This document shows positions 10,465 to 60,367 of a stretch of 64,000 nt of DNA, piece after piece. The DNA is from a phage. The notes under the pieces were generated by a model, which saw only the letters and a list, made by a program, of their open reading frames with translations, was not told the DNA's origin and made no database searches. Both the position numbers and the translations under genes were made by a program. Each line of letters opens with the position of its first letter. Positions within the stretch are counted from its first letter, which is position 1. The DNA lies in assembly GCA_026066175.1 (NCBI GenBank), contig GCA_026066175.1_4721.1; one strand, 5' to 3'.

Positions 10465-11985
10465 TTACACCTCGCTAATCTGAATAACGTAAAGCTGCTG
10501 GGCCACGTAATCGGTGGTCAGATGCATCGTTGCGATCGTTGCCGCTTCGAAAACGGTAAGCTCGGGACGTTCGCGCATGATCAAATCGATTTCATCGATC
10601 AAACGGTTAACGCCCTGGGCGTCTTCATGATGCATGACTTTGACGTATAGCGTACGGAAGTATTGCTGGAAATTAGCCACGTCGGTATCGGTCAGATTAG
10701 CCACTTCACCGCGTACGATTTCCAACACTTTCTTACGGGTGTCTTCATCGAGGTCTACCGTAATCAAATCAGCAAATACACCCTGCAGCGCCAACGCGTA
10801 TGCGCGTAAGCGGTTTGCAGCTTGCTGGCTGGCTTTCATGTTAATGTAGTTACGATAGTGCTGCATGAAGCCTGCACCGTTCGCTAACAGTTCATCTTTG
10901 CTTATGAGTTCACGTTCCAACAGAACCGCTGCGGTTAATGCTTCTGGTGAACCACCTTCTTGCAGATAACTCATGTAGACATCGGCGTTAACGAAGATCG
11001 TCATCGTTGATGCATCTTCGGCACGTTGAATCTGAGATGCGGATGGCGCAGAAAGAATCAGTTCACCACGCTCCATACGCAGGATACGATCACGACCAAT
11101 ACGTGCCATCCCGTTGATCGCTGCACTACGGGCCTGTTGCATCTTCGCACGATAGTTCTCGAGCATCATGTCGTTACCGTCCTGGATATCTTCCAGTAGG
11201 TTAACCGCCCACATATAGCAGAGGAAAGCCGGGGTTGCAGCGGCACGTGAACCCTGGAAGGCGACGTTGTCGCTATCCGGATACGCGATCAGGAAAACGT
11301 TGTTGGTAGCGGATGCCGAACCACGGAAGAAATGGTTGTAAATATCTTCCAGTGCTTGATCGCTCATTCCTTCGGTTGCTTGCTGGACGAAACGGTCCAG
11401 GTTTTCATTACCGGTATACAACAAAGTGCGGAGTTTGTCGCCGGTGATATAGGCCAGCTTCTCGGTTGGGGTAAACTCATTGTTAACATCGATCAGGCCG
11501 TTAAGGTTATACTCACCCACCAACGCCTGATATTCTTCAGAGTTATAAAACTCAGGATAGTAACTCAAACTTACTGTCGGGATCAGTTTAGGTGCCAGGA
11601 TGATCGCGTCGATGCGTTTTTCCAGTTCCGGGTACAAGGCACGGCATTTCGGCAGGATGGTATTACGCGCCAGCTCTTTGGCATACACCACCTTTTCCAC
11701 CACGTCTTGAACTGCGGTCTGTAAAACTTCATCATGAATATAAACCTCGCGTTCGCCAGCAGGTCGTACGACACCGTCCTCGGTTTCATCAAGGGTTTCA
11801 GCGACCACCACACGCTCAGCACTCAGCTGTACTAATGCATCAGCATCTTCTGGCGGTTGGTTCCAATGCATAGTTTCACAAACCGCAGCAAGCGGGGTAC
11901 CTGGAATTGCTGCAACGATCTGGTTGCGTTTAATAAACCCTTCAACGATCGGCTCAACGGCATAAACGGTTTTATTGGTAATCAT
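10465..11985 (-). CDS. hypothetical protein (506 aa)
   Basis: Long ORF in the same operon as 9021..12218; no convincing motif. Confidence 0.65.
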   Translation of the reverse strand: MITNKTVYAVEPIVEGFIKRNQIVAAIPGTPLAAVCETMHWNQPPEDADALVQLSAERVVVAETLDETEDGVVRPAGEREVYIHDEVLQTAVQDVVEKVVYAKELARNTILPKCRALYPELEKRIDAIILAPKLIPTVSLSYYPEFYNSEEYQALVGEYNLNGLIDVNNEFTPTEKLAYITGDKLRTLLYTGNENLDRFVQQATEGMSDQALEDIYNHFFRGSASATNNVFLIAYPDSDNVAFQGSRAAATPAFLCYMWAVNLLEDIQDGNDMMLENYRAKMQQARSAAINGMARIGRDRILRMERGELILSAPSASQIQRAEDASTMTIFVNADVYMSYLQEGGSPEALTAAVLLERELISKDELLANGAGFMQHYRNYINMKASQQAANRLRAYALALQGVFADLITVDLDEDTRKKVLEIVRGEVANLTDTDVANFQQYFRTLYVKVMHHEDAQGVNRLIDEIDLIMRERPELTVFEAATIATMHLTTDYVAQQLYVIQISEV

Positions 11986-12218
11986 TACTGCGCTCCCTCC
12001 AACGCGTTGTTACGTACCGGCTCTTTGGTTTCCAGACGGCTGTTCAAGCGCGCAGCAACCGCATCTTCCAATCCCAACGGCATAACCTTTTTATTCACAT
12101 CAGGATCCGCTGCATCGTTACCGACGGTCTGACGGACGACCTCAGCAACCAACGTTACCGCGTTCGTCAGCGCAACAAAGCTCGCTGCCCGAGCCGTATT
12201 AAGTTGTTCTTGGTTCAT
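11985..12218 (-). CDS. hypothetical protein (77 aa)
   Basis: Short ORF from track, first gene after the terminator hairpin at 12253-12278; 1-nt overlap with the downstream gene. Confidence 0.45.
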   Translation of the reverse strand: MNQEQLNTARAASFVALTNAVTLVAEVVRQTVGNDAADPDVNKKVMPLGLEDAVAARLNSRLETKEPVRNNALEGAQ

Positions 12219-12252
12219 TCACTTTTCCTTTACCACGTTCAGCGAAATAAAT

Positions 12253-12278
12253 GAGCAGGGGCATAACGCCCCTTGCTC
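12253..12278. terminator. hairpin terminator after the RNAP beta-like fragment
   Basis: GAGCAGGGGC-ATAAC-GCCCCTTGCTC stem-loop, followed by a U-rich tract on the minus-strand transcript, directly after the stop at 12279. Confidence 0.55.
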
Positions 12279-13409
12279 TTATTTGGCTTCATTAAAATAA
12301 ATATCAACGGCACGTTCCGTTGCGTAGAGAAGACCCAGATTCACGGTCCCTACCACTTCCGGTGAACCGATGATACGGTTAGCGATACTGGTGCCACTGA
12401 AGATAGCATCAAGGGTGTGCCCGTCTTCGGTTTTGTTCACACCATGACCCACGGAAGAGACAACGGATTTCGCCTGTGCGGCGAAGGTACCTTTATCCCC
12501 CATTCCCGCACCAAGGTCGTAACGCATGAAAATACGGATCGCGATCTGGTTCTCACCTAACGGATTACCGTCTATTCTCACGTTACTGTTATTGATGCGT
12601 CCCGTTGTTGCTTCGTTGAGTTTCAGTTCCTTAACACGTTTAGCTCGCGCCTTATCAGCGTCACCCACAAGTGCTGCCATGGTTTCGCTCATGTCTTCAA
12701 TCTGAGCGCGGTACAACACATCGATCTGTACGACTTCACCATGCACGTCAGCGCGTGGGTTATACTGACTCATACGGCGTAACGCTTCAACCGCTTCCTG
12801 ACTTTCATCGCTCAGATCGGTTGCAATAGGTTCTTCCAGTGTTGCCAGGATCGTCCGAGGTTCAACATGATCGCCGATTTTCACCAAACCACGAATGTTG
12901 AGATGAGCGTCAACAATGAGCGTACGGCTCTTAATCGATGGGGTTACGAGACGATCGGCAAGATTGTCGAAGATATACGAACTGTCCTCGTGCGTTTCTG
13001 GAATATCCAGAATACCAACCAGAGACAACACGCCTGCGCGCCAAACAACCTGACCTGGGTTCCACCAATCCCGTTTAAAATAAAGACGATGGAAAACCAC
13101 TACATCCTGGTCCTTAACGCGATCCCCGACTTTATAATCGGTAATGAGATCGTGAGGATAATACTTACCTGGTCCTTTCCCGATTATCGTACCGAGTTGG
13201 AAAACCTCTTCCCCTAATTCTGGATCGTCGTATTGTATCGTAAGCGCTGTTTTGGTGACCTTCTTCACAACACCATCGCCTTGAGCAGCTGCTGCGAAGA
13301 GTTTACCAACACGATGCGCGATAACAGTCTCGCCACCAGTGCGCCATGGTTGTACGTCGTAACCTTCAGCGGCTATCATGCGGTTGTGTTGGATGCCTAT
13401 AAACACCAA
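12279..13409 (-). CDS. multisubunit RNA polymerase beta-like subunit, central fragment (possible downstream exon)
   Basis: By-eye alignment to bacterial RpoB: FIGIQHNRMIAA resembles the conserved ANRALMG segment; IRIFMRYDLGAGMGDKGTFAAQAKSVV resembles [26 protein letters not shown]. Track start is TTG with no SD and the frame is open for 8 codons upstream, consistent with an exon. Not database-verified. Confidence 0.5.
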   Translation of the reverse strand: MVFIGIQHNRMIAAEGYDVQPWRTGGETVIAHRVGKLFAAAAQGDGVVKKVTKTALTIQYDDPELGEEVFQLGTIIGKGPGKYYPHDLITDYKVGDRVKDQDVVVFHRLYFKRDWWNPGQVVWRAGVLSLVGILDIPETHEDSSYIFDNLADRLVTPSIKSRTLIVDAHLNIRGLVKIGDHVEPRTILATLEEPIATDLSDESQEAVEALRRMSQYNPRADVHGEVVQIDVLYRAQIEDMSETMAALVGDADKARAKRVKELKLNEATTGRINNSNVRIDGNPLGENQIAIRIFMRYDLGAGMGDKGTFAAQAKSVVSSVGHGVNKTEDGHTLDAIFSGTSIANRIIGSPEVVGTVNLGLLYATERAVDIYFNEAK

Positions 13410-28931: not shown

Positions 28932-28967
28932 AGCCCTCCTCCTTCCCTTCCGGGTTGGAGGAGGGCT
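28932..28967. terminator. GC-rich hairpin (AGCCCTCCTCC-TTCCCTTCCGGGTT-GGAGGAGGGCT), bidirectional terminator candidate
   Basis: 11-bp inverted repeat between convergent genes 26776..28917 (+) and 28972..30039 (-). Confidence 0.6.
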
Positions 28968-39751: not shown

Positions 39752-39805
39752 GCGTGTGTCCTTGATAGTATGAAATTTCCAATACAACTTAACCGAGGAC
39801 GTCGA

Positions 39806-41146
39806 ATGATTAATATTTTTGGTTTTTATACGTACAAAGGGTACGCTAATAACCACCCAAAAACCACGGCGAAATTCGGTGAGTTCAGTCAGCACAGTGC
39901 TACGTTCAGTCGCGAGATCGGCATCTATACCAACACGGCGTACGCACGTACGACCTTATTAGTGTTGAATGCAGAAAACGAAGCTGGTGAGGCACAAACG
40001 CTGGATGACGACACCGCAGGCCGCATTCTTCAGGTTGGTCAATGGTTGCTGGAAAAAGCCTCATCGGGCGAAATCCAGGAAGACAGAGACCAAGTTATCA
40101 GCTACCTAAAAGACGACTTCACAACGTATCTGGATTCTATCGACATCCCAACACCCACCACCGATGGGAAAGTCTATCTACCGGCGTGGATCAGTTTCAA
40201 GATAACAGCCACCGGCGATGTTGTCAAGATTTGGTTGTCTGATAGCGTATTCCAAAGTCAATATCCAAAATACGAATATGAAGTCGTTCCTCCTGTTCCT
40301 AAGGATCAGTTAGATACCTTCTTCGAAGATCTGGCAACATTGAAGAAACTGGTTGACAGTCGAAGCAGCGAGAAACTGACCGAAGAAATCAACGAGGTGC
40401 GCGACCAATTCCCAGACACACAATTGTGGACGAAAACCTATAAAGCGTACGATTACACCGACGATTCGAAATACATTAATACCGATTGGACGGTGATCAT
40501 CTACGGTGCGGCAGGTAACAACATTGATAATATCAAGGAGTTCCTGCAAAACTGGATTCTTAGCAACAGCACGCACGGACGTCCAGACTGGGAAATCGTT
40601 CTGCCGGATCTTTTTATTCCGACGGAACACATCTTCATCCCAATCTGGAACCGCCACAGCGCCCCGGAAATGACCAATCAGGCACGTATCTATAGTCCTA
40701 TCTTCGATGATTCGTTGATGGATACCTACCTGAAAAACTTTGCTGATGGTTACGGTGAAACCACCGAAGTCCGTAAATCGCTTCAAGCTGTGCCGACGTT
40801 GTGGCGCTCGATCGGTTTCTTAAGCGTTGGTAACTCACGTAACCGTGACGGTAAGCTTAAGTTCTACGATCGCTGGCCGCAATACGCACTTATCAGCACA
40901 ACCAGTATCGACATTAACCGTATCGACGATGCGACACGTGAATTCATCACCTTCACTTACGAAATGCTGAAACTGGCAGAATCGCTCACCGAAGACGATC
41001 CAGTACCGTTGGGCTATAGTCGTGTTACGCGTGGCAGCAATAGCTTCTTAGCGAAAAGCCACAACGATGTTCAGTATCTCTTCTTAACAAAAGAAGCGTT
41101 CCTGAAGAAAATGCCGGATGAAGCCGACACACCTGTTGGAGGTTGA
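39806..41146 (+). CDS. hypothetical protein
   Basis: ORF track 39770..41146 trimmed to ATG with GAGGA SD. Confidence 0.6.
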   Translation: MINIFGFYTYKGYANNHPKTTAKFGEFSQHSATFSREIGIYTNTAYARTTLLVLNAENEAGEAQTLDDDTAGRILQVGQWLLEKASSGEIQEDRDQVISYLKDDFTTYLDSIDIPTPTTDGKVYLPAWISFKITATGDVVKIWLSDSVFQSQYPKYEYEVVPPVPKDQLDTFFEDLATLKKLVDSRSSEKLTEEINEVRDQFPDTQLWTKTYKAYDYTDDSKYINTDWTVIIYGAAGNNIDNIKEFLQNWILSNSTHGRPDWEIVLPDLFIPTEHIFIPIWNRHSAPEMTNQARIYSPIFDDSLMDTYLKNFADGYGETTEVRKSLQAVPTLWRSIGFLSVGNSRNRDGKLKFYDRWPQYALISTTSIDINRIDDATREFITFTYEMLKLAESLTEDDPVPLGYSRVTRGSNSFLAKSHNDVQYLFLTKEAFLKKMPDEADTPVGG

Positions 41147-41148
41147 TT

Positions 41149-41775
41149 ATGGCTGTAACACGCATGACGCCAAGTCCCGGCGCGGTCGGGGTATTCACAG
41201 TATCAGCGCCGTTCTCCGTTGGTGCATCAACGTTATATACCGTTACAGCGTTGCGAAGATTCAGCGAAGTCATCGGTAGTGGAATCGATCTATTTACGGA
41301 ACTATACGAACCGTTATCGATAGACAAATCCACTTTCGAAGCGCATCTTGAAGCAAATGCTTATCTCGTCACGTTACAGCCGGATTATGGTGCGCCAGTA
41401 CTGGTACCAGATACGTATATCACGTCGTACCCAAAGAACGATTCCTTACGGTATCGTCGCATTATTCTGGGTATTGATTTCGGGCCTCTTCCTCCCGGTC
41501 TTGACCTTTCGTATTTAACAACGATATTGAAAGGTAAAGCCAGTGATATTCTTGGTGTCGAACCTGAAGTTAAAACGATGGAAATCACTCTCGATGATAC
41601 CGTTACGCAGGAACAACATCAGATAAACGAAGCCCGTCGTCAGGCCGCGATAAAAGAGCGAGATACCATATACGCACGCTGTGAAACGCAAGAGAAGCAG
41701 ATAACGGCTTTGCTTGCAACCCAAAAGCAACTTATCAAATTGCTTCAAGACGCCGGTATCAATCCGACACCTTAA
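41149..41775 (+). CDS. hypothetical protein with C-terminal coiled-coil-like region
   Basis: Start ATG with GGAGG SD immediately after the upstream stop; followed by the hairpin at 41782-41813 and an A16 run. Confidence 0.6.
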   Translation: MAVTRMTPSPGAVGVFTVSAPFSVGASTLYTVTALRRFSEVIGSGIDLFTELYEPLSIDKSTFEAHLEANAYLVTLQPDYGAPVLVPDTYITSYPKNDSLRYRRIILGIDFGPLPPGLDLSYLTTILKGKASDILGVEPEVKTMEITLDDTVTQEQHQINEARRQAAIKERDTIYARCETQEKQITALLATQKQLIKLLQDAGINPTP

Positions 41776-41781
41776 CATATT

Positions 41782-41813
41782 CCCTCCTCCTTCCCTTACG
41801 GGTTGGAGGAGGG
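41782..41813. terminator. GC-rich hairpin (CCCTCCTCC-TTCCCTTACGGGTT-GGAGGAGGG) followed by A16
   Basis: Perfect 9-bp arms; the inner loop can itself form CCC/GGG around a UUAC (GUAA on the opposite strand) tetraloop; between convergent genes. Confidence 0.6.
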
Positions 41814-41888
41814 CTATGCCGTAAAGCAAAAAAAAAAAAAAAATGATAGTCACGAGCCCTCCAATGAAGGAGAGCCGTGACCGTCAGT

Positions 41889-42590
41889 TTAGGATGCGGA
41901 TAATCTAGCGTACTTTTGTCGAATATGGTTCTTACGGCGAACTTCGTCATCCTCGTCGCGCCATTCGAGGTAAGCTACGAATCGCCGTAACTGCGCTGCA
42001 GTCATTGTTGCTGACAGATCTTCTATTTCTAAAACAACATAGTGAACTTCGCCGACACCATCGCAGTCAGTATAACGGAATACCAAAAGATCCTTATCAT
42101 ATTCCGTGATAATAACCTTGAATCGTTTCTCGAACAAATAAAACAGTTCCGATTCGATAATCATCGGGATAACACAATTATCGTCACGTTCAATGATTTT
42201 CATCATCACACGTAACGCACGAAGCGTGTGATGGGCGAACGAACCATTAAATCGTTGATTCATTGCTTGTCCCACATCAACGATCTTTGTTCCTGGCCAG
42301 GGACGGATTACTGATTTCGGTGGTGTAAGACGGCAGCGGTACGCTTGTATAAACAACAGAATATCGGCGACATTAGGAAATTCTTCCTGGTCTTTGTACA
42401 GCTTACGGATAATATCCGGGATCGTAGTCAACAAATATTTCCTATCGCCTCCCACTTTCTCGAGATTAGCGATATGCCCTTCTACCACCGGCTGGTAAAC
42501 GAAATTATACCAGTGGTGGTATTTTGCAACGTGTTGGTATTTCGGGATGAAATTAAGAACAGCGTTCACTGCGCGTTTTAATGGGTTCAT
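41889..42590 (-). CDS. hypothetical protein
   Basis: 233 aa ORF. Confidence 0.6.
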   Translation of the reverse strand: MNPLKRAVNAVLNFIPKYQHVAKYHHWYNFVYQPVVEGHIANLEKVGGDRKYLLTTIPDIIRKLYKDQEEFPNVADILLFIQAYRCRLTPPKSVIRPWPGTKIVDVGQAMNQRFNGSFAHHTLRALRVMMKIIERDDNCVIPMIIESELFYLFEKRFKVIITEYDKDLLVFRYTDCDGVGEVHYVVLEIEDLSATMTAAQLRRFVAYLEWRDEDDEVRRKNHIRQKYARLSAS

Positions 42591-42604
42591 CAGAAGAATC
42601 CTTC

Positions 42605-43039
42605 TTATGTTTTAATATGCACATCGTCAATCCCCTCGGTAATCCAGCCGATGGGAAGGACAATCGTTGTTATCGTGTTATGTGTGTAAGGATTAAGAAA
42701 ATGGAAATAGTAATTTGTGTTAGATTGTTCGATGCGTAGGTCGAGCTGTGCGTCTTCAGGTAACCGTAACCAGGCACCGTACAGTTCATTAAACTTACGC
42801 TGAATTTTACCTGGGTTCATTGGAACCCCACGACCACGTTGATGTAGCTGACGTAATGATTCAATCAAACACTCAGAGATACCCGTTGTCGTTCCGTTAT
42901 CGCTTGTATCGACAACGATGAACTCTCGTGACCCACGACCAAGATAAAAACCAGCAACAAAAGCTGCAGCAACAAAAAATATCGTACCGATACCAATATA
43001 CCAATAGTAAGTATCCATAACGGCCTCACTTATACCCAA
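42605..43039 (-). CDS. small membrane protein (one N-terminal TM helix)
   Basis: 144 aa ORF; hydrophobic stretch IGIGTIFFVAAAFVAGFYL. Confidence 0.55.
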   Translation of the reverse strand: MGISEAVMDTYYWYIGIGTIFFVAAAFVAGFYLGRGSREFIVVDTSDNGTTTGISECLIESLRQLHQRGRGVPMNPGKIQRKFNELYGAWLRLPEDAQLDLRIEQSNTNYYFHFLNPYTHNTITTIVLPIGWITEGIDDVHIKT

Positions 43040-43557
43040 TAGTCGGCAAGCGGTTTCACCTTATTAACGGGTAATTGTACTTTACCGATATTCTCTACAT
43101 CTGCATCCGCGTAGAGAACAATTTTATCATTGTCTCTTTCCCAACGAATAATAAATCGACCAGGAAGAAGATTACCCTGTTCAAGAGACGCAGTAACCTG
43201 CTGCGTTAACACCGACAACCAAGCAGGCATCAGTGTTGCAATATCTAAGTCATTTGACCATTCAGCACGTTGCTCCACAGGGCGTAACATCCGTTGGATG
43301 GTGCGTTGAACCGTCGCAGTGATATAGCCTTTATCTTCATCACTGATCGGATCCGGACGAGACACAAAACGTTCAGTAGGCTTGTGGGTAATATGTTCAT
43401 GCAATTCGATGAGTGGTGTTGTCATAGTACTCGCTCCGTCAGAATGTAATTGGGTAACCCGCAGGGTTGTCTGCATGGTATTCAGAAGCGCAAAAGCGCC
43501 ATAAACAACAACGACACTAAGTACAACCAAAACAGAAATCATTAACGTATATTGCAT
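43030..43557 (-). CDS. small membrane protein (one N-terminal TM helix)
   Basis: ORF track 43030..43605 trimmed to ATG (MQYTLMISVLVVLSVVVVYGAFALL) with GAGGAGA SD. Confidence 0.55.
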   Translation of the reverse strand: MQYTLMISVLVVLSVVVVYGAFALLNTMQTTLRVTQLHSDGASTMTTPLIELHEHITHKPTERFVSRPDPISDEDKGYITATVQRTIQRMLRPVEQRAEWSNDLDIATLMPAWLSVLTQQVTASLEQGNLLPGRFIIRWERDNDKIVLYADADVENIGKVQLPVNKVKPLADYWV

Positions 43558-43625
43558 TGATATCTCCTCTTCATACGCATCTTGAAGATTAGTTAAAATC
43601 AACAAAAGAAAAAACGATATAAAGC

Positions 43626-43651
43626 AAGGTCCTCTGATATCAGAGGACCTT
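43626..43651. promoter_or_regulatory. perfect 26-bp palindrome AAGGTCCTCTGATATCAGAGGACCTT
   Basis: Read directly; lies between two membrane-protein genes of the same operon; could be an RNA hairpin (processing site or attenuator) or a dimeric protein-binding site. Confidence 0.4.
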
Positions 43652-43658
43652 GGATCAA

Positions 43659-44315
43659 TTAGCTTGCAGCTTCTTCATTTGTTTCAGGTTTGCTTCCCCC
43701 TAACAAACCGTCAAACAGACCCGTATGTTTCAGGTAGAAGAGAGCGATAGCGCCCATTGCTGCTGCGCTCGTCGCCGTTAATGCAACCCCTGCACGATAC
43801 TGCCATTTACGGTCAGGCTTTTGATCAAGCGCCATACGACGCATGTATTCAGCCTCTGCTTCATTCCGATGAATTTCGGATTCGGCCAAGCGGGCTAAGG
43901 TATCGCGGTCAAGGTTATCATAACGTGCGTTCATGGTGGTTTCCTCTTGTTTGGAAGTTGATTGCTTGGTAGATTCTTGGTCAACAGTCGTTTCGGTTGG
44001 TTCAAACGGCTGGTTGTTCATTTTCTGATCTTTATTGGACATGATAGGCTCCTTCGATTTTTGAGACGAAATTGATTTAAACCATCGTGGATGGCGGTAT
44101 TCGGTTTTACATGTACAGTTAAGTTTCTCATGCAGGAAGGCGTAAAAACGTTTCGCACCTACACGTAAGGCTTTCAGCATTACCCATCCACGAGCACTCA
44201 AACGGTGTAGCTGTTGCGGTATGTCGAGTTTCCTAGCCAAGCGAAAGTATCTCTCAATCACTTCGATAGGAAACCATTGTTGTTCCACATCGGTGAGACT
44301 GAAAGTCTTATCCAT
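43659..44315 (-). CDS. membrane-anchored protein (C-terminal TM helix)
   Basis: 218 aa ORF; C-terminal GVALTATSAAAMGAIALFYL hydrophobic helix; first gene after the motif at 44346-44357. Confidence 0.55.
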   Translation of the reverse strand: MDKTFSLTDVEQQWFPIEVIERYFRLARKLDIPQQLHRLSARGWVMLKALRVGAKRFYAFLHEKLNCTCKTEYRHPRWFKSISSQKSKEPIMSNKDQKMNNQPFEPTETTVDQESTKQSTSKQEETTMNARYDNLDRDTLARLAESEIHRNEAEAEYMRRMALDQKPDRKWQYRAGVALTATSAAAMGAIALFYLKHTGLFDGLLGGSKPETNEEAAS

Positions 44316-44345
44316 GAATGAAATCTCGCTGGCTTACTTCACTTA

Positions 44346-44357
44346 AGTAATATAGCC
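44346..44357 (-). promoter_or_regulatory. candidate early promoter motif (GGCTATATTACT on the transcribed strand)
   Basis: Plus-strand TAAGTAATATAGCCGTGAAA, ~30 nt upstream of the start at 44315; the same 20-mer recurs at 59607-59626. Confidence 0.45.
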
Positions 44358-44465
44358 GTGAAAAATGATGGAATAAGTTAAATACGACAACCGCAACTAA
44401 TTTTATAGGCTTTTAGCCTAAACCAATCATCTTCGGAATCATCATCTTTGAAACAGGAATCTATC

Positions 44466-45934: not shown

Positions 45935-45966
45935 CATCCTCCCAACCCGTAAGGGAAGGGAGGATG
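45935..45966. terminator. GC-rich hairpin (CATCCTCCC-AACCCGTAAGGGAA-GGGAGGATG)
   Basis: 9-bp arms; the loop is the reverse complement of the loop at 41791-41804; between convergent genes. Confidence 0.55.
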
Positions 45967-60335: not shown

Positions 60336-60367
60336 CCCTCCTCCTTCCCTGATGGGTTGGAGGAGGG
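60336..60367. terminator. GC-rich hairpin (CCCTCCTCC-TTCCCTGATGGGTT-GGAGGAGGG)
   Basis: Perfect 9-bp arms, immediately downstream of the stop of minus-strand gene 60385..61278. Confidence 0.55.

Follow-up and report, generated by a model that had tools for sequence, protein, structure and literature searches.

What do three small membrane proteins, encoded with a fourth, soluble protein behind an early-type promoter motif, do for a nucleus-forming jumbo phage, and what is the perfect palindrome between the first two of their genes? We addressed this for positions 41,889–44,376 (minus strand) of a 64,000-nt stretch of phage DNA (GenBank assembly GCA_026066175.1, contig GCA_026066175.1_4721.1; hereafter, the window). 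Over 3 kb, the region is 91.6% identical to Escherichia phage vB_EcoM_Goslar (MK327938), in an alignment that runs from base 1 of that record, and the surrounding 16-kb stretch shares 92.6–94.7% identity with Goslar and two IMG/VR contigs; judged by these matches, the source is a nucleus-forming jumbo phage of the Chimalliviridae that resembles Goslar. The four open reading frames (ORFs) on the minus strand are homologues of Goslar gp004, gp003, gp002 and gp001, each annotated as 'hypothetical protein' in MK327938, and a literature search on Goslar gp1–gp4 returned nothing. With somewhat better than even confidence, we read the locus as an accessory early unit of a Goslar-like chimallivirus, arranged as promoter–gp004–terminator–gp003–gp002–gp001 and encoding a membrane module. 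The elements named in an initial annotation of the locus (promoter motif, ORFs, transmembrane (TM) segments and palindrome) were all located on the minus strand, with the small corrections given below.

All four ORFs are genuine genes, under purifying selection relative to Goslar (ratio of non-synonymous to synonymous divergence (dN/dS) 0.06–0.18) and among nine Goslar-like genomes (0.10–0.18), and synonymous divergence climbs from the first gene (gp004, 0.12) to the last (gp001, 0.41). The short gaps between gp003 and gp002 (11 nt) and between gp002 and gp001 (14 nt) tie these three genes together. The first gene product, the gp004 homologue (218 amino acids (aa); 43,659–44,315, minus strand; 98.2% aa identity to Goslar gp004), had been described as C-terminally anchored, and its single hydrophobic segment does lie at residues 175–195 (nt 43,731–43,793; Kyte–Doolittle 19-residue mean, 1.76). 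The protein is laid out as an N domain (residues ~1–80), a disordered linker rich in S, T, Q and E, a helix and a C-terminal tail-anchor TM segment—an architecture shared by the remote homologues P0040 and P0039—and its parts differ in dN/dS (N domain, 0.07; linker, 0.34; C part, comprising helix and tail anchor, 0.04). The N domain has W14, F15, R38, R42, G43, H62, K64 and a P76-R77-W78-F79 motif as invariant residues; an excisionase-like helix–turn–helix assignment for this domain found no support in a Pfam scan. Features of a tail-anchored protein are the placement of the TM segment within ~30 residues of the end of the 218-residue chain, the lack of an N-terminal signal and an N-terminal bulk predicted by the positive-inside rule to be cytoplasmic. 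In four homologues, the segment is flanked by charges of +4–5 before and +1–3 after it, and a 23-residue tail follows.

The gp003 homologue (175 aa; 43,030–43,557, minus strand) carries an N-terminal TM segment at residues ~4–26 (19-residue mean, 2.75) ahead of a C-terminal domain of ~145 aa, and the gp002 homologue (137 aa; 42,605–43,018, minus strand) carries one at residues ~6–27 (2.15) ahead of a domain of ~105 aa that ends in a conserved P-x-x-W-x-x-EGID motif. Both N-terminal helices had been proposed previously; the start of gp002 had been placed at TTG 43,039 and is most likely ATG 43,018, which has the Shine–Dalgarno (SD) sequence GTGAGG and is the annotated start in Goslar. For gp003, we retained ATG 43,557 because in Goslar an in-frame TAG interrupts the extension to TTG 43,605. 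Comparison of the gp002 and gp003 families by hhalign (probability 0.4%) indicated no relationship, and no paralogues were found among the four proteins, elsewhere in the window or in Goslar. The TM segments, assigned by hydropathy, keep their positions in the remote homologues, which supports the claim of three single-pass membrane proteins; the fourth product, the gp001 homologue (233 aa; 41,889–42,590, minus strand), has no hydrophobic segment in the Kyte–Doolittle scan and agrees with its description as soluble. Across lineages, the gp003 and gp002 anchors have no K or R before the TM segment and K or R after it. The soluble domains of gp004, gp003 and gp002 are thus predicted to face the cytoplasm, with gp003 and gp002 oriented N-out/C-in.

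Evidence that these three genes belong together comes from distant relatives. An exhaustive HMMER search with a gp004 alignment recovered P0040 (E = 5e-8) and P0039 (E = 4e-9) as full-length homologues, and the remote set was formed from their contigs and a 101-kb sister contig joined through cluster membership. Contigs L010 and L027 have the same order, consisting of a gp004-like gene, a hairpin, a gp003-like gene and a gp002-like gene, followed by unrelated genes. The remote gp003 homologues are 21–25% identical (pairwise E = 1e-7) and the remote gp002 homologues 27–32% identical (pairwise E = 9e-17; E = 9e-10 against the whole phage collection). In L027, the module occupies the syntenic site, flanked by a gp005-like gene on one side and the DUF7194/gp248 pair on the other, and its 21–32% identity contrasts with 54–66% in the flanking genes (DUF7194, 54%; gp248, 66%). 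By these comparisons, gp004–gp003–gp002 form a conserved module whose rate of evolution is far above that of the adjoining genes, which is a new result. Two remote lineages also retain, by sequence, the upstream early promoter, the order of the genes and a terminator hairpin behind the first of them. In DUF7194 and gp248, the uncultured lineage L027 is nearer to Goslar than is any isolated phage (36% or less for DUF7194), so that L027 represents an unsampled Goslar-related group.

Beyond these relatives, the module is narrowly distributed. A tblastn search of 50,697 phage records with each protein and its remote homologues found only Goslar, and scans of IMG/VR, metagenomes and genomes found only Goslar-like contigs. 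At the syntenic site beside DUF7194 (PHIKZ161), phiKZ, SEGD1 and PCH45 carry other genes, with products devoid of TM helices; those encoded in SEGD1 bear no similarity to the module proteins. Scans of the four proteins and their remote homologues against Pfam, PHROGs and NCBIfam gave nothing above noise, and sequence searches of the PDB with the alignments found no relative.

The module is preceded by a promoter motif of early type. The initially noted GGCTATATTACT (44,357–44,346, minus strand) lies inside a far longer conserved motif, ttattccatcatttttcacggcTATATTACttaagtgaagtaagcc, at 44,376–44,331, which we assign as a 46-nt early promoter of the virion RNA polymerase (vRNAP) type (44,331–44,376, minus strand); its core, TATATTAC, is at 44,354–44,347, 32 nt upstream of gp004. 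Taking as a guide the early consensus of AR9, AAATATATATTAT-(6N)-G(+1) (PMC5312081), which the Goslar-type TATATTAC-N6-G parallels, we predict that transcription starts at the G at 44,340, giving a 5′ untranslated region (UTR) of 25 nt. The core alone is marginally enriched in the window (5 copies, all on the minus strand, versus 2.0 ± 1.5 expected), and the significance of the motif therefore comes from its extended context. Four minus-strand sites in the window have that context (7,091, 31,245, 44,354 and 59,619), and the fifth copy of the core (14,994) has a weaker one; the consensus is about ttaatccaacatttttcacGGCTATATTACyTAaGTGAag. A weight matrix trained on eight Goslar sites and scanned over the 237-kb Goslar genome yielded 12 sites, of which 8 carry TATATTAC and 4 carry TACATTAC. 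All lie on the minus strand, co-oriented with the downstream genes, and the next-best score is far lower. One of them lies upstream of chmA (gp189, the shell gene), the motif ending 72 nt before the ATG; the Goslar RNA-seq paper displays a chmA start-site sequence that begins at −91 at 5 min post-infection, an agreement within ~25 nt only.

Comparison of 12 Goslar-like genomes shows no change in the motif core or the 5′ UTR, next to strong divergence in the DNA just upstream. An early promoter (tatttcagggcTATATTACttaacTGATAG) is found 47 nt upstream of the gp004 homologue in L011, and the TACATTAC variant precedes the homologue in L027; the L010 contig starts 14 nt before its gp004-like gene, which places the promoter region outside the contig. 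According to published work, every jumbo phage that encodes its own RNA polymerases has an AT-rich motif of ~10 nt near −10 of its early operons (PMC7598289). The element described here has this form, with an AT-rich motif ~10 nt before the predicted start and co-oriented recurrence, including at chmA. The earlier proposal of an early-type promoter motif is thus supported, and the promoter type suggests early expression of the gp004 unit. As in phiKZ-like and AR9-like phages, an AT-rich block near −10 is repeated before early operons; the Goslar-type motif differs from theirs in its greater length (tttcacGGC upstream and GTGA at the start) and in having just 12 copies in 237 kb, and its start is here a predicted one. 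The phiKZ early core is likewise TATATTAC.

The palindrome between gp004 and gp003 is real and perfect, as first described, although its length is 28 bp rather than 26 bp (arms 43,625–43,638 and 43,639–43,652; 14 + 14 nt, 100% complementary, with a GATATC centre). Chance alone would give about 2.4e-4 palindromes of this kind in 64 kb (64,000 × 4^-14), and none of the other perfect hairpin stems in the window reaches its length. Its RNA is predicted to fold into a 12-bp stem (7 G–C pairs) with a 4-nt loop (minimum free energy (MFE), −24.1 kcal/mol; z = −5.05 versus shuffles), beginning 6 nt 3′ of the gp004 stop codon; it is the self-complementary AUAU loop alone that makes the DNA look like a perfect palindrome. 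With the following CTTTATATCGTTTTTTCTTTTG, it makes up a putative intrinsic terminator or attenuator (43,603–43,652, minus strand), and MK327938 annotates a 'putative transcriptional terminator' between gp004 and gp003 at this palindrome. In phiKZ, ONT-cappable-seq showed that the many intrinsic terminators have in common a hairpin with BYTTATKYYGT after it (Putzeys et al. 2024, PMC10914365); the tail here, CTTTATATCGT, fits that motif at 10 of 11 positions, and TTTTTCTTTT comes next. Other strong hairpins in the window (7,996 (−), 30,077 (−), 45,317 (+) and 56,916 (−)) each have TTTATGCCGT immediately 3′ and, with the hairpin at 43,622 (−), which has TTTATATCGT after gp004, form a terminator family that fits the phiKZ tail TTATKYYGT.

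Two further observations concern what is conserved at this site. Among 12 Goslar-like genomes, the hairpin has a single substitution, an A-to-G change in L025 that keeps a G–U pair, and such pairing is possible only in the sense-strand RNA. In L010, L027 and L011, hairpins of different sequence stand at the same position after the gp004 homologue: those of L010 and L027 have a tract of 7–8 U directly 3′, and that of L011 (ATGTGCCCTC-UUCG-GAGGGCAUAU followed by U7) precedes a gene for a protein with an N-terminal TM segment. Because hairpins of unrelated sequence occupy the same spot, it is the structure and not the sequence that is conserved. In these remote hairpins, 100% of cells are paired, versus 30–63% when the register is slid, and the three sequences show one or two compensatory changes and three G–U-compatible changes. 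The stable G+C-rich stem-loop, the tail motif and the positional conservation of structure (in three sequences, with weak statistics) are the properties of a phiKZ-type terminator, and on this sequence evidence we assign the palindrome as the stem-loop of an ordinary intrinsic terminator of that type. It shares with the phiKZ elements a stable G+C-rich hairpin with YTTATKYYGT immediately after; unlike them, its stem is not of the CCYCCCC/GGGRRGG type, it is a perfect palindrome by virtue of the self-complementary loop, and it sits within a gene cluster, so that it probably attenuates transcription instead of ending the unit.

The palindrome had alternatively been proposed as an RNase III site or an attenuator. 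The second proposal fits the phiKZ-type tail and the positionally conserved hairpins. RNase III substrates usually comprise about two helical turns of double-stranded RNA (~20 bp or more), and the 12-bp stem falls short of this. A related idea, that the element is bound by a dimeric regulator, could draw on the perfect 28-bp dyad with its GATATC centre and on its near-invariance across Goslar-like genomes. We nevertheless regard processing by RNase III or binding of a dimeric regulator as most improbable, given the short stem, the fit of the tail to the terminator family, the unrelated hairpin sequences at this spot in remote lineages, the one variant, whose G–U pair has meaning only in sense-strand RNA, and the lack of a second copy of the palindrome in the window. 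Rfam had no match in the region.

Read as a single early unit, the locus would be expressed as follows. The injected virion RNA polymerase would start near 44,340 at the early promoter and transcribe gp004, reaching the palindrome terminator just after the gp004 stop codon, where most transcripts would end; a fraction would read through into gp003, gp002 and gp001 and halt at a second, strong putative intrinsic terminator (41,828–41,881, minus strand), a 13-bp hairpin followed by T16 (MFE, −27.7 kcal/mol; z = −5.7) that is kept in 9 genomes. If most transcripts end at the first hairpin, gp004 protein should be made in excess over the others.

More than one gp004 product is conceivable. The gene contains a candidate internal start at 44,040–44,054 (minus strand; SD AAGGAG at 44,054–44,049 and ATG for Met92 at 44,042–44,040) and a second at 43,932–43,949 (minus strand; GAGGAA and ATG for Met128 at 43,934–43,932). 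Their predicted duplexes with the anti-SD sequence (−8.0 kcal/mol for Met92 and −6.0 kcal/mol for Met128, versus −3.6 kcal/mol for the annotated start) are the strongest among in-frame starts. Equivalent SD and ATG combinations lie in the linkers of L010 (M129), L011 (M167) and L027 (AAGGAA-N6-ATG); in the Goslar-like genome L020, TTG replaces ATG at codon 92. These features suggest a hypothetical short, tail-anchored gp004 isoform made from an internal start.

In the favoured reading, gp004 would be tail-anchored with its conserved N domain in the cytoplasm, possibly accompanied by the shorter isoform, and gp003 and gp002 would be held by their N-terminal helices with their C-terminal domains towards the cytoplasm. 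The three proteins are inherited as one module and hence probably work jointly at the inner membrane, on its cytoplasmic side, where we infer that they form a complex. The module is non-core, evolves much faster than its flanking genes and lies beside a variable cargo slot, which makes a conflict or host-takeover role at the inner membrane the most likely class, a view that we hold tentatively, at just under even confidence. Such a module would protect an established infection at the membrane, either by keeping out the genomes of phages that arrive later or by blocking host functions or defences that are tied to the membrane. Superinfection exclusion specifically seems unlikely, and no similarity to Sie families was found in PHROG, Pfam or NCBIfam. 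The predicted cytoplasmic domains speak weakly against mechanisms that act in the periplasm.

Several points weigh against the reading as a whole. The topology derives from hydropathy and the positive-inside rule only. No protein has a family, fold or PDB match, and the AlphaFold2 (AF2) models are poor (that of gp004, with a mean predicted local-distance difference test score (pLDDT) of 38, is too weak to use). Goslar co-infections have been seen by microscopy, which does not favour strong exclusion. The covariation of the hairpin comes from three sequences and is not significant, its score being equalled in 173 of 500 shuffles. Finally, the terminators of L010, L027 and L011, with their uninterrupted U7–8 tracts, look efficient and are followed by a conserved leader, and the downstream genes may therefore have a promoter of their own.

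This last point underlies a two-unit arrangement, in which gp004 would be an early monocistronic gene and gp003–gp002–gp001 would be transcribed from an unrecognized promoter in the ~65-nt leader, possibly by a non-virion polymerase and at another time. Hairpins that directly abut U7–8 have the canonical form of efficient terminators, and in phiKZ many single-gene units lie between a start site and a terminator (PMC10914365). The leader before gp003 (43,558–43,602, minus strand) contains the inverted repeat GTTGATTTTAAC, an ATGAAGA/GTGAGA element and the SD sequence GAGGAG. Analogous leaders occur in L010 (735–783), L011 (1,531–1,580) and L027 (10,041–10,093), so that in every lineage the stretch ahead of the gp003 start holds a short inverted repeat (one of GTTGATTTTAAC, GTCAAATTTGAC, TGTCAAGTTTGACA and TGTCATCTTTGACA) together with a GTGAGA-like element; the leader may be a second promoter or an operator. 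Against this, the leader has no early-type motif, no copy of its motif is repeated elsewhere in Goslar, a sigma-70 scan of this strand of the leader gave nothing convincing, and gene order and spacing are conserved as in one unit. We therefore consider two units possible but doubtful, and retain the single attenuated unit.

The initial annotation had named holin or spanin function with late expression as the alternative to its early membrane proteins. A place in the lysis programme, as holin, antiholin or spanin-like proteins, would suit single-pass proteins of holin-like or inner-membrane-spanin-like size, and the possible two translation starts of gp004 recall dual-start holins; in SEGD1, moreover, an endolysin gene lies in the convergent cluster, a few kilobases from the DUF7194 gene. 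The genes around the unit do not bear this out. The neighbours are gp005, DUF7194 and gp248, with no adjacent endolysin gene (the Goslar hydrolases are gp098 and gp024), and the SEGD1 neighbours have neither TM helices nor similarity to the module. None of the four proteins has an N-terminal lipobox cysteine, no outer-membrane lipoprotein partner is present, the promoter is of early type and the soluble domains are predicted to be cytoplasmic. Goslar has a better candidate cluster around the SleB-like hydrolase gene gp098, and we judge a lysis role for the unit highly improbable. That probable lysis cluster (MK327938, 108,183–113,340) encodes gp098 (with a signal or signal-anchor-release (SAR) N terminus), gp100 (4 TM segments), gp101 (2 TM segments), the secreted gp103 and gp104, and gp094 with an N-terminal TM segment, and lies downstream of an early-type promoter at 113,797.

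A structural role was also weighed, in which the proteins would tether the early infection vesicle, the nascent nucleus or the PhuZ cytoskeleton to the membrane or reshape these structures there. Membrane anchors, predicted cytoplasmic domains and an early promoter would all suit it; the early-infection vesicle of Goslar derives from host membrane (bioRxiv 10.1101/2023.09.20.558163), and no phage membrane protein has been assigned to the vesicle stage in the literature covered. However, tblastn finds the module in no other isolated chimallivirus and the syntenic site lacks it in phiKZ, SEGD1 and PCH45, which argues against a core role in anchoring the compartment; the vesicle also forms before any phage gene expression, and the module evolves far faster than the conserved flanking genes. 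On balance, we find a structural role improbable. There is also a slim chance that the proteins assemble into an unrecognized complex of phage origin, seated on the cytoplasmic side of either the host inner membrane or the early infection vesicle, that serves a lineage-specific step. Its tail-anchored subunit would be in excess, perhaps as two isoforms, and the step could be, for example, handover of the genome from vesicle to nucleus, anchoring of the PhuZ vortex or disabling of vesicle formation by competitors. Taken together, a conflict or host-takeover module remains our preferred interpretation.

The last gene of the unit behaves differently from the module. The gp001 homologue is 79% identical to its Goslar counterpart at the aa level, versus 93–98% for its neighbours, and gp001 falls into 26 protein clusters at 59–93% identity among otherwise near-identical phages; in L010 and L027, unrelated genes occupy the slot (three in L027, at 11,091–13,225). 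The gp001 slot is a diversity hotspot. The AF2 model of gp001 is weak (pLDDT, 58), and a Foldseek search with it against BFVD and PDB found nothing below E = 0.1. At the opposite end of the module, L011 carries a gene of the SUKH_5/SUKH_6 immunity families (70–510) immediately upstream of its gp004 homologue, followed by a phiKZ-type terminator (CCCCTACC...GGGTAGGGG TTTATGCCGT).

Beyond gp001 lie two convergent plus-strand genes, for a DUF7194 protein (41,143–41,775), a PHIKZ161 homologue that occurs in 288 phage records, and for the virion protein gp248 (39,770–41,146). In the IMG/VR genome L013, the TTCATT loop of the T16 terminator (41,862–41,867) is exactly reverse-complemented (AATGAA) with the stem kept, a change that, from its sequence, is a loop inversion mediated by the hairpin. 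Another hairpin element, CCCTCCTCCTTCCCTTACGGGTTGGAGGAGGG, recurs at 41,782–41,815, 28,934–28,967 and 60,336–60,367 of the window, with a partial copy at 45,942–45,959; in the Goslar-like genomes L018 and L021 its inner part is present twice and in L025 that part is inverted, and the element behaves like a dynamic repeated terminator element.

The regulatory part of the locus is ordinary: promoter and terminator both belong to known types, and the terminator is already annotated in Goslar. The use of this part lies in providing a workable early-promoter and terminator consensus for Goslar-like genomes. What is new, and of moderate interest, is the protein part. Nucleus-forming phages start infection in a membrane vesicle, and an early three-protein membrane module that Goslar-type lineages have retained as a set is thus a concrete and cheap target for knock-down and localization in Goslar. 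Should the module be a superinfection-exclusion or anti-defence device, it would be one more fast-evolving accessory system and little else.

Among known systems, the S gene of phage lambda is the closest parallel to the gp004 starts: it is a dual-start membrane protein gene whose products, S105 and S107, begin two residues apart. The gp004 gene may likewise give two membrane proteins from two in-frame starts, the second with the better SD sequence, but its starts are 91 or 127 codons apart and internal initiation would remove a whole domain instead of two residues. T4 Imm and Sp and the lactococcal Sie proteins are small, early, bitopic or two-pass inner-membrane proteins for superinfection exclusion, accessory and fast-evolving. 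The module resembles them in being small, membrane-bound, accessory, fast-evolving and, by its promoter, early; it differs in having no sequence similarity to them, in comprising three proteins with predicted cytoplasmic domains and in not being known to cause exclusion. The phi29 proteins p16.7 and p1 are early membrane proteins that organize phage DNA replication at the membrane, and they share with the module, as predicted, early expression, a single anchor and a cytoplasmic functional domain, one of the two having an N-terminal anchor and the other a C-terminal hydrophobic region. No similarity links them to the proteins described here, in which no nucleic-acid-binding domain was detected, and, unlike phi29 DNA, chimallivirus DNA replicates in a protein shell away from the membrane.

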